IMG/VR virus record: IMGVR_UViG_3300047322_000608
Span: 1 to 64,000 of that record
Origin: a virus
DNA length: 64,000 nucleotides
Direction: 5' to 3' (one strand)
Shown here one piece after another: positions 52,817 to 64,000 of the stretch. The stretch's first letter is position 1. The number at the start of each line of letters is the position of its first letter. The notes beneath the pieces were generated by a model. That model had not been told where the DNA came from, made no database searches, and saw only the letters and a list, made by a program, of their open reading frames with translations. Made by a program: the position numbers and the translations under genes.

Positions 52817-52893
52817 AAGCTTAACGTAGCCCAGTTACTCGTTTGAGTAGCTGGTCGGTGACAAGCCCGGGGAAACAATACGGAGTCAAGCTT
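52817..52893 (+). ncRNA. twister self-cleaving ribozyme (type P1)
   Basis: P1 AAGCU/AGCUU, UAA, P2 CGUA/UACG, GC, 10-bp P3 hairpin, P4 UCGG/CCGG, L4 UGAC-AA-GC, GA-GUC(A) T1 partner; predicted cut U52822/A52823. Confidence 0.9.
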
Positions 52894-52921: not shown

Positions 52922-53350
52922 ATGTCAGCAACCAGTTTGATCAGTTTCGACGCAAGCGCCAACGCGGTAACGTCTTACAACGAGAAGATGAAAACCACTA
53001 CCTTGCGCTTGCTTACGGCGAAGGAGTTCAAGACGGCGCGTGGGCTCAAGGGGAACGCCGCTTCGGTGGCTTACAATGCCTACATTCGGGAGCATGGTCT
53101 GGCGAACACGGCGGGTTTGGCGGCGGCGCTCACGTCGGGTGAGTTGTTGGTTCGTTCGGCGAGGGACAGCTCGAAGTCCCTGAACGTGTCGTTTGTCAAG
53201 AAGTCTGCCATCAAGGACCCGGCCGTGAAGTCTGCCCCTGCCCCCGAAGTCACGGCTCTGGAGACTGAAGTTGCCAACCTGAAGGCTATGCTGGCTGGGC
53301 TTGGCGCGAAAGCGGAAGAGATTGCGGCGGCGCGCCCGAGCGCGGTGTAG
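52922..53350 (+). CDS. first early gene, hypothetical basic protein
   Basis: GAGG RBS and TATG start; 142 aa. Confidence 0.75.
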   Translation: MSATSLISFDASANAVTSYNEKMKTTTLRLLTAKEFKTARGLKGNAASVAYNAYIREHGLANTAGLAAALTSGELLVRSARDSSKSLNVSFVKKSAIKDPAVKSAPAPEVTALETEVANLKAMLAGLGAKAEEIAAARPSAV

Positions 53351-58798: not shown

Positions 58799-58876
58799 GC
58801 AACACCGCACCGTGCTGCGGGGAAAGCACGGATCTTTTGCAGGCTTCCGACGTGTTCGGTGGCCTGGAAAGGAACA

Positions 58877-59563
58877 GTGACGAAAACAAAGAACAAGAAA
58901 CTCAAGTTTAGCGTGGAAGACCTGCGCAAGCTGAACCCCTGCCACGAAGCGCTGGCGTGGGTTGATAAGCAGCATGGCGAGTCTCCATCGGATCTGTGGC
59001 AGATGTGCCCTCGATCGGATTGGATGCTATGGCTGCTTGCACGGGTTCGACCGTTGTCCAAGCCGGAAGCGGTGACATTGGCGTGCCGGTTCGCGCTCAA
59101 AGTCCTGACGGTATTCGAGACCCGCTATCCATACGATAAGCGCCCGCGGCAGGCGATTGAGGCAGCTCAGGCGTGTCTGAAAGACCCGTCTGCTTCTGCT
59201 GCTTATGCTGCTGCTTCTGCTGCTTCTGCTGCTTATGCTGCTGCTGCTGATGCTGCTGCTGCTGATGCTTCTGCTGCTGCTGCTGCTTATGCTGCTGCTG
59301 ATGCTGCTGCTGATGCTTCTGCTTATGCTTCTGCTTATGCTGCTTATGCTGCTGATGCTGCTGCTGATGCTGCTGATGCTGCTGCTTATGCTTATGCTGC
59401 TGATGCTGCTGATGCTTCTGCTGCTTATGCTGCTGATGCTGCTGCTGCTGCTTATGCTGCTGATGCTGCTGCTGATGCTGCTGATGCTGCTGCTGATGCT
59501 GCTGCTGCTCGCAAGAAGCAGGCCGACATTATTCGCGAGATCATCGGCAACCCATTCAAGTGA
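58877..59563 (+). CDS. Imm5-like protein with Ala/Asp/Tyr/Ser repeat
   Basis: GTG start after AAAGGAACA; DWM.WL, AC.FA..VL..FE..YP.DKRPR.AI.AA, ..QADI.R; 107-aa low-complexity insert. Confidence 0.7.
   Translation: MTKTKNKKLKFSVEDLRKLNPCHEALAWVDKQHGESPSDLWQMCPRSDWMLWLLARVRPLSKPEAVTLACRFALKVLTVFETRYPYDKRPRQAIEAAQACLKDPSASAAYAAASAASAAYAAAADAAAADASAAAAAYAAADAAADASAYASAYAAYAADAAADAADAAAYAYAADAADASAAYAADAAAAAYAADAAADAADAAADAAAARKKQADIIREIIGNPFK
59189..59509 (+). repeat. 321-bp trinucleotide-based coding repeat (GCT/GAT/TAT/TCT only)
   Basis: 107 consecutive codons all of form KMT. Confidence 0.95.
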
Positions 59564-62707: not shown

Positions 62708-62917
62708 GTAGCGTGGGGCTCTGCCCGCGTTGCGGCAAGGTGATCTCATTCAGATTCCCGGTTCACGACTGCCGCAAGCCCAAGAAAGCTAAAATGGAAA
62801 AACCGGCTAAGGGGCAAACCTTTCGCCGGTAAGGAACAGGTACGGGAGTATGAGGGCCCGCATCCGTGTGGCCTCTACTCTCGGACCGAAACGAAAATCA
62901 GTCAAGAAAGGAACATT

Positions 62918-63382
62918 ATGGGATTGGACATGTATCTGAAAGCCACTCGGTACATCGGCAACTGGGATCACACTTCGGAGTCCGAAAGAGCCAGGTATCG
63001 CGGAGTCACAGAGGCGATTGGATTCTCCGGGTTCAGTTGCCCTGGTTCGCCGCACTTGGTTGTGGATCTGTCGGTCGCTTATTGGCGGAAAGCCAACCAG
63101 ATCCATGCCTGGTTCGTGGAGCACGTCCAGGATGGGGAAGACGAGTGCCGGGAGCACTCGGTCAGCAAGGAGCAATTGCAGACGCTCTGCGATTTGTGCC
63201 AGCAAGTCCTGGACACAAAGAATGCCTCACTTCTGCCGCCTCGGCCCGGGTTCTTCTTCGGCAGCACGGACATCGACGATTATTACTGGCAGGATCTCAA
63301 GTATACCATCGACCAGCTCAAACCGTTGCTGGAAGATCCGCGGTTCCAAGGCTGGGATTTCACCTACCAGTCAAGCTGGTAG
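62918..63382 (+). CDS. hypothetical phage protein
   Basis: MGLDMYL...YWRKANQIH.WF...LP...GFFFGS..YQSSW; AAAGGAACA RBS. Confidence 0.8.
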   Translation: MGLDMYLKATRYIGNWDHTSESERARYRGVTEAIGFSGFSCPGSPHLVVDLSVAYWRKANQIHAWFVEHVQDGEDECREHSVSKEQLQTLCDLCQQVLDTKNASLLPPRPGFFFGSTDIDDYYWQDLKYTIDQLKPLLEDPRFQGWDFTYQSSW

Positions 63383-63386
63383 AAAA

Positions 63387-63439
63387 GCGCGAAACGGGCT
63401 TCGGCCCGTCTGCTGGTATGCGCCAGCACCGATGAGCGC
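63387..63439 (+). ncRNA. hammerhead self-cleaving ribozyme, type II, U4C core variant
   Basis: GCGC-GAAAC-GGGC(UUCG)GCCC-GUC-UGCUGG(UAUGCG)CCAGCA-CCGAUGA-GCGC; predicted cut after C63410. Confidence 0.85.
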
Positions 63440-63464
63440 CCGGAATAAACCACAAAGTCTGCGC

Positions 63465-63494
63465 TTGACATGCGTTAACGAAGTAAACTAGCGT
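63465..63494 (+). promoter_or_regulatory. sigma70-type promoter
   Basis: TTGACA-18 nt-TAGCGT just downstream of the hammerhead. Confidence 0.55.
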
Positions 63495-63517
63495 TTAACG
63501 AAAGGCAACAGTACGAT

Positions 63518-64000
63518 ATGAGTGATGGCAAATTGATCGATGGCGTCCTGGTCTGCATGACCAAGTCGTGCGGGATAGCCGGGTCCAAGGTGGACAAGGA
63601 GATGACCGCCGAAGTCGAGGACGATAAGAACGCCGGCCACGGAGCTGGCACCTGGAGCAACAAACTCTTCCCGCCTAAAGCGTGCGGCAAGAAGAACAGC
63701 TTCACCAACCTGCGAACGCACATGAGCCAGATGTACCACTGGCACATGGCCAATTCGTTCGTGTTCGAGAACGAACTGTGGCGGATCCTTCCAACCAAAA
63801 GAGTGGAAGCCTACCGCCAGGTCGTGGAAGTGGCAGGCAAGGCGACAGCACACACGCTATTGAACGAGTTCCTGGACGATTACGAGAACCTGAAGGATCT
63901 GGCGCGCAGGCCGCAACCGGACGGACGCGGCGAGTTGTTCAAGGACGACGATTACCCGTCCAAGGAAACGATTCGAGCCAAGTTCTTCTACGACGTCAGC
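63518..64000 (+). CDS. DUF3150-like early protein (truncated by window end)
   Basis: open frame MSDGKLIDGVLV...K.D...AG...KLF...RILP...F...Y..L....G.LF...DYPS...IR.KF to the end of the window; not in ORF track. Confidence 0.65.
   Translation, partial: MSDGKLIDGVLVCMTKSCGIAGSKVDKEMTAEVEDDKNAGHGAGTWSNKLFPPKACGKKNSFTNLRTHMSQMYHWHMANSFVFENELWRILPTKRVEAYRQVVEVAGKATAHTLLNEFLDDYENLKDLARRPQPDGRGELFKDDDYPSKETIRAKFFYDVS

Follow-up and report, generated by a model that had tools for sequence, protein, structure and literature searches.

The window, a stretch of 64,000 nucleotides that forms the first 64 kb of a 75,869-bp IMG/VR virus record, carries at positions 63387-63439 of its plus strand a complete type II hammerhead fold with stems I and III capped and stem II open, in which one letter of the catalytic core departs from the consensus, a cytidine replacing the uridine at position 4 (U4C). 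Judged from its sequence, the element has both the ancestry and the fold of a hammerhead, and it falls into the short-loop, pseudoknot-less type II class that is common between phage genes. We lean towards the view that it is a genuine hammerhead which cuts a phage transcript shortly past a stop codon, probably at a reduced rate. Comparison across phage genomes further indicates that C4 is specifically tolerated in this hammerhead family and recurs widely within it.

The 5' strand of stem II (positions 11.4-11.1, GCGC, 63387-63390) pairs over 4 bp with the 3' strand (10.1-10.4, GCGC, 63436-63439). It is followed by the core letters G12-A13-A14 (63391-63393), which align to the invariant GAA of the Rfam family RF02276 and of our own class model R1 (see below), and by a 6-bp stem III hairpin, A15.1-CGGGC-UUCG-GCCCG-U16.1 (63394-63409), assigned from sequence and fold. 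C63410 takes the place of C17 in the hammerhead alignment, which puts the predicted cut between C63410 and U63411. The stem I hairpin, UGCUGG-UAUGCG-CCAGCA (63411-63428, with arms 63411-63416 and 63423-63428), likewise assigned from sequence and fold, has 6 bp, or 7 bp if a U-G pair closes it, and its 6-nt loop UAUGCG lies inside the U-R...G range of the short-loop class. In the core segment C3-C4-G5-A6-U7-G8-A9 (CCGAUGA, 63429-63435), C63430 stands instead of the consensus U4. Of the features that define the RF02276 type, the GAA core, the A63394-U63409 pair, C63410 as H17 and the G10.1-C11.1 pair (G63436-C63390) are all present and no mispair adjoins the core (U63411-A63428, A63394-U63409); the C3-U4-G5-A6-N7-G8-A9 core is not matched, position 4 being C63430. 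A second defect is absent, since the 16-17 stem pairs and the other 12 of the 13 core letters are intact. The minimum-free-energy fold of 63383-63445 is exactly the hammerhead three-way junction (-26.5 kcal/mol, an energy that is by itself unremarkable, z = -1.5). The original prediction had described this anatomy from the letters, and every element that it listed was found where it had been placed; its type II topology is borne out by the minimum-free-energy fold and by full-length alignments to RF02276 and R1, and its U4C reading by the core CCGAUGA with C at 63430. An alternative register of the core was rejected, as no shift brings back the CUGA turn. When pairing between loop I and the 3' tail was sought in the window copy, the best pairing had 2 bp, against a criterion of at least 4 bp for the pseudoknotted class; an alternative GCG/CGC pairing was discarded because it competes with stem II.

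The Rfam model Hammerhead_II (RF02276) aligned to the site over its full length (1-66) with 28.0 bits (genome E-value 4.6e-5) against a gathering score of 37, and a default Rfam scan is blank for the window because the score lies under this threshold. A check by type II covariance models, as the original prediction had proposed, gave a full-length alignment to RF02276 at 28.0 bits, under the cut-off of 37. The anticipation that the variant core would escape strict pattern searches was correct, and the Rfam cut-off misses the window copy as well. Model R1 is a covariance model made from 25 canonical short-loop phage type II hammerheads with the window sequence left out, a class characterized by a 4-bp stem II, a 6-bp stem I and a U...G loop of 3-7 nt. 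With this model the window site scored 60.1 bits (E about 1e-18) over model positions 1-54, and the sole mismatch to the conserved positions of the model was U4C. A strict structural descriptor was also applied. It demanded C-GAAA, a hairpin of 4 bp or more with A-U as its closing pair (stem III), any letter except G at position 17, a second hairpin of 4 bp or more (stem I), C-N-GA-N-GA-G with positions 4 and 7 open to any letter, and 2 bp or more in stem II. With both strands searched, the 75,869-bp genome yielded a single site, and no site came up in 150 dinucleotide-preserving shuffles. A chance match is excluded.

The same data bear on a reading in which the element is not a functional ribozyme, its two GC-rich hairpins acting as a terminator, an attenuator or a protector of the mRNA 3' end and its resemblance to a hammerhead being incidental. 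Both hairpins are stable and lie just past a stop codon, and in a locus with a homologous downstream gene (L017) the corresponding position is occupied by a plain terminator-like hairpin. However, neither hairpin of the window copy is followed by a U-run, a terminator scan of 62800-64000 was negative, and 12 of 13 conserved core letters are correctly placed, with 60 bits against the class model and 0 hits in 150 shuffles. We consider this explanation highly improbable.

The C at 63430 is real and does not stem from an assembly error. In two other soil or rhizosphere samples, runs X4 (contig over 62888-63601) and X9 (63128-63603), the contigs have no differences across the motif, and the C4 allele is fixed across the contigs of three or more samples. 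The original prediction had called for a look at T versus C at 63430; the contigs of the two other samples have C, and assembled contigs as such cannot exclude a rare T allele.

The 75,869 bp are the full IMG/VR virus record, rated complete by CheckV, of an uncultured phage of about 76 kb that is temperate-looking and of soil or rhizosphere provenance; its sequence is present in many rhizosphere and soil metagenome runs. No RNA run was found among the sequencing runs listed with the window sequence, and blastn with 62800-64000 gave no match among GenBank phages. The hammerhead sits inside a long plus-strand gene block (about 52.9 to 73.8 kb) whose products include AAA ATPases, a DUF7192 protein and a PAPS-reductase-like protein. 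About 9 kb from the hammerhead and beyond the window, this block contains a tyrosine integrase (genome 72670-73785). A reverse transcriptase gene (plus strand, genome 69847-70833, L143:6847-7833; RVT_1, E 2.6e-21) shares the block with the hammerhead, also beyond the window, and the integrase follows 1.8 kb past it. About 10.5 kb upstream of the hammerhead and on the same strand, a twister-P1-like motif at window positions 52819-52891 lies 30 nt before ORF 52922-53350. It aligned full-length and has kept the conserved AAGCCCG, GCC and GGAG elements, with 37.5 bits against a cut-off of 67.2 (local E 6.9e-7). A sub-threshold match to the isrG sRNA family (window 59235-59530, plus strand, 42.9 bits against a cut-off of 100, E 6.4e-8) overlaps ORF 58859-59563, itself with a weak Imm5-like Pfam match, and may reflect protein-coding similarity instead of an sRNA. 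In a search for further ribozymes, the remaining 12 kb of the genome gave nothing more, and a window-wide E-value scan added only the sub-threshold twister-like and isrG-like matches.

Immediately upstream of the element, a plus-strand gene of 154 aa (62918-63382 in the ORF list; phrog_7971 match, E 3.8e-9) ends with TAG at 63380-63382. After AAAA the ribozyme starts at 63387, 4 nt past this stop codon, just as the original prediction had it. Sixteen other phage hammerheads start in the same manner 2-26 nt after an upstream stop codon, 14 of them at 2-8 nt, and a role in forming the 3' end of the upstream mRNA is a reasonable proposal on the strength of this placement. For most of the collected hammerheads with a reliable-looking start call, the next start codon comes 14-45 nt later. 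For the upstream protein, tblastn against IMG/VR gave two distant relatives (L002 and L003; 38-42% identity, matching up to residue 154), and neither of these two loci has a hammerhead.

The downstream gene of 299 aa is an ORF on the plus strand that begins at 63518 and runs through the window end at 64000 to genome position 64417. Its product matched no family in Pfam or PHROGs. It has 30 homologues with 49-100% identity, among them proteins P0002-P0005, which are 78-81% identical; relatives sought in IMG/VR and in the genome collection were not found, and an exact-pattern scan of metagenome contigs for close relatives yielded nothing. A profile scan of metagenomes recovered relatives of the downstream protein only up to 62% identity, and the four loci L016-L019 (49-62% identity) have no hammerhead upstream of the gene, so that the element is dispensable at this locus. 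Directly upstream of a 22%-identical homologue in L005, a hammerhead is present; together with its absence from L016-L019 this means that the element comes and goes at the locus. A contig of run X6 skips 69 nt of the 299-aa gene (23 codons, in frame; window 63845-63915), suggestive of a deletion variant of this gene in another sample.

Between the ribozyme and the downstream gene lies a plus-strand TTGACA box (63465-63470), followed at 63472-63502 by a direct repeat, GCGTTAACGAA and GCGTTTAACGAA, which was noted in the sequence. The repeat is situated between the ribozyme and TTGACA box on one side and the ribosome-binding site of the 299-aa gene on the other, and its exact word occurs only here within the window. 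Box and repeat together may represent a putative promoter or operator of the downstream gene. The original prediction had gone further and let the hammerhead precede a new promoter. This was not sustained, as a sigma-70 and terminator scan of 62800-64000 found neither a hexamer pair nor a terminator despite the TTGACA, and the best -10 candidates were poor. The downstream gene may have a promoter of its own, since relatives (L016, L017) carry a promoter-like TTGAC-N16/17-TAAAAC motif at the equivalent place upstream of the homologous genes.

If the element works as we favor, it would be transcribed within the long plus-strand block, and the transcript would fold into the three-way junction and cut itself after C63410. 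Hammerhead cleavage leaves a 2',3'-cyclic phosphate on the upstream and a 5'-OH on the downstream product. The upstream mRNA would accordingly terminate 28 nt past its stop codon, within the stem III hairpin and with a cyclic phosphate, and the downstream product would carry its 5'-OH right at the base of the stem I hairpin, 107 nt before the next start codon. Such a cut would uncouple the fates of the two messages and would have consequences for mRNA stability. C4 would remove the imino contact of the uridine turn, and most likely it slows the cut and does not abolish it.

In the textbook consensus and in mutational scans, U4 is taken as essential. The window copy was set beside other phage hammerheads. 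An exact-pattern scan of IMG/VR found two canonical hammerheads (L004 and L005) with an identical 23-nt stretch, GAAACGGGCUUCGGCCCGUCUGC, comprising stem III and the start of stem I. The stem I UGCUGG-N6-CCAGCA is common to ten further IMG/VR contigs, all of them with CUGAUGA, and stem III and most of stem I of the window copy are letter-identical to these canonical relatives (L004-L015). When IMG/VR was scanned with the pattern GUCUGCNGG-N4-14-CCNGCAC-Y-GAUGAG, at least 119 stretches were obtained. Among at least 116 distinct sequences of this stem I sub-family, at least 43 were C4 and at least 73 U4. When the whole collection was scanned as a control with the same frame and a purine (A or G) at position 4, no stretch matched, indicating that position 4 takes C and no purines, and a control scan with any substitution at G5 gave a single stretch; C4 is thus far commoner than decay at the neighboring core letter. 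The C4 copies are spread over at least nine sequence groups that are unrelated to one another. Aligned alone, 28 C4 sequences had 95% of the cells paired and both-sided changes in 11 of 20 pairs, including 4 of the 5 pairs of a pseudoknot between loop I and the 3' tail; none of 500 shuffles reached these values, and slid controls collapsed. In a clade of gut phages with strongly diverged downstream flanks C4 is the majority state (32 of 43), with eight state changes on the tree. Among 23 bystander hammerheads of the same loci, which lay outside the pattern selection, 22 had U4 and one C4. Rfam listed other C4 copies above its cut-off (L080 and L086, 47 bits each); it gave 36 bits to a U4 copy in L031 and did not list the C4 twin of that copy in L030. 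In the literature searched, no paper was found in which C4 figures as a frequent allele among phage hammerheads, which is no proof of absence.

The distribution of C4 over the two architectures speaks against a working ribozyme in the window, for C4 is nearly confined to long-loop, pseudoknotted copies. When 111 distinct hammerheads, which are not phylogenetically independent, were sorted by the length of loop I, 27 of the 62 long-loop copies had C4 and 35 U4, in contrast to 1 of 49 short-loop copies, the one being the window copy and the other 48 U4. A pseudoknot of at least 4 bp was detected in 26 of the 28 C4 copies. These counts fit the idea that tertiary contacts offset core defects (PMC3088659). 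Lacking a pairing of loop I with the 3' tail, the window copy has nothing visible to offset its core defect, and its being the sole C4 member of the pseudoknot-less class is the main ground for doubting its activity. The element could accordingly be a hammerhead, recently inactivated or nearly so, that suffered a single U-to-C transition at a position which its architecture does not buffer, the loss being tolerated because the element is dispensable at the locus, for instance if the downstream gene has its own promoter. Besides the loop-class counts and the missing tertiary pairing, this explanation draws on the low activity reported for a type III hammerhead whenever a single letter of its CUGA turn was mutated (PMC9901934) and on the relatives of the downstream gene that do without a hammerhead and carry TTGAC-N16/17-TAAAAC, a TTGACA box following the motif in the window too. 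On the other side, stems and core are free of a second defect, the C4 allele is fixed in contigs from three or more samples, and C4 is clearly tolerated elsewhere in the family. Moreover, according to the account given in PMC3088659 of Ambros and Flores (1998), a viroid variant with U4C had considerably decreased activity in vitro and yet permitted infectivity, so that it was active enough in vivo. Inactivation is a serious contender, to which we assign somewhat less than an even chance. The viroid hammerhead, as related there, shares the core substitution with the window copy; it belongs to a replicating circular RNA, in contrast to the mRNA element of a DNA phage considered here.

A further precedent for a natural core variant comes from the phage Bcep176, whose A6C hammerhead is active, with a preference for Mn2+ that exceeds that for Mg2+ by orders of magnitude (PMC7151607). 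Like the window copy, it is a single-letter variant in an intergenic region of a phage (PMC3088659; PMC7151607), but its change is at position 6 and not 4, and its activity and Mn2+ preference were measured. By analogy, the window element might be a conditional ribozyme in which C4 alters the requirements of the reaction, for example through protonation of the cytidine at low pH or through another metal ion, so that cleavage and the uncoupling of the messages follow the state of the host. In agreement with this, C4 has been kept at high frequency in some phage clades and not purged. Nevertheless, the literature searched gave nothing on C4 in connection with ions or pH, and the free alternation of C and U among near-identical phages (the eight changes on the tree) looks more like near-neutrality than like a function of its own. 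We give conditional cleavage a small chance.

More broadly, the recurrence of C4 could mean that CCGAUGA is not a defect but a second core which selection maintains in the type II hammerheads of phages. Position 4 would then need a pyrimidine and not U in particular, the C form would be slower or dependent on pH or metal ion and would set the ratio of processed to unprocessed message, and the window copy would be the first pseudoknot-less example. In our opinion this proposal is rather unlikely.

Type II hammerheads between genes of phages and prophages are an established group (RF02276; Perreault et al., 2011, PMC3088659) and have been described near prophage integrases and in tandem around genes (PMC3088659). 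The window copy resembles them in topology, in all core letters but one, in its placement after a stop codon within a phage gene block, and in its vicinity to an integrase and another ribozyme class. It differs from them by the C at position 4 and by its 28 bits against a cut-off of 37, and it is without the pseudoknot between loop I and 3' tail that many type II members have, as are 48 canonical short-loop members. With the pseudoknotted C4 hammerheads from IMG/VR (L025-L142), the window copy has the core variant, the stem I sub-family and the intergenic placement in common; their long loop I, however, pairs with the 3' tail in a covarying manner, while the loop of the window copy spans 6 nt and makes no pairing of this kind. 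By the strict criteria that PMC3088659 sets, a candidate with any altered core letter does not qualify until it is tested. Processing of polycistronic mRNAs has been suggested for these ribozymes, and ribozyme classes are reported to cluster in phage regions (PMC6765202; PMC6155905). The integrase and the twister-like motif near the window hammerhead match the literature on clustering of ribozymes near prophage genes (PMC3088659; PMC6765202), and the proximity of the twister-like motif to the hammerhead fits the known clustering of ribozyme classes.

Intergenic hammerheads of phages were already known in 2011, so that the element as such is ordinary. It is a true member of an established class of phage hammerheads, and U4C is a known substitution. 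The modest value of the finding lies in the core letter, with many C4 phage copies that have covarying stems and pseudoknots, no A4 or G4, and almost no changes at G5. The many C4 copies in phage genomes imply that annotation based on consensus and thresholds under-counts phage ribozymes, and the architecture of these copies suggests that a change in the core can be made up for by tertiary contacts. Being without the buffering pseudoknot, the window copy is a useful test case for whether C4 is tolerated alone.

Several further observations were made on the collected contigs. Two hammerheads about 300 nt apart surround a small gene in several of them, and more generally many phage contigs contain two to four type II hammerheads spaced by 300-500 nt, each around a small ORF. 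Multiple type II hammerheads were found in L030 (5351-5419 and 5819-5884), L031, L008, L011, L013, L015, L042 and L142, and L142 has two C4 copies. In the gut-phage clade, the first hammerhead has the canonical core (65-67 bits), whereas C4 and U4 alternate in the second. By eye, a CCGAUGA copy on the minus strand of L087 (2779-2808 and flanks) has a seemingly open stem III, a 2-bp hairpin as stem II and a G-U pair at 10.1-11.1, and it appears to be of a different topology. Finally, twister-sister ribozymes above the Rfam cut-off (49-51 bits) occur in L080 (3083-3154, plus strand) and L086 (9252-9326, minus strand), two related phage contigs, in each case within 2-3 kb of a C4 hammerhead.
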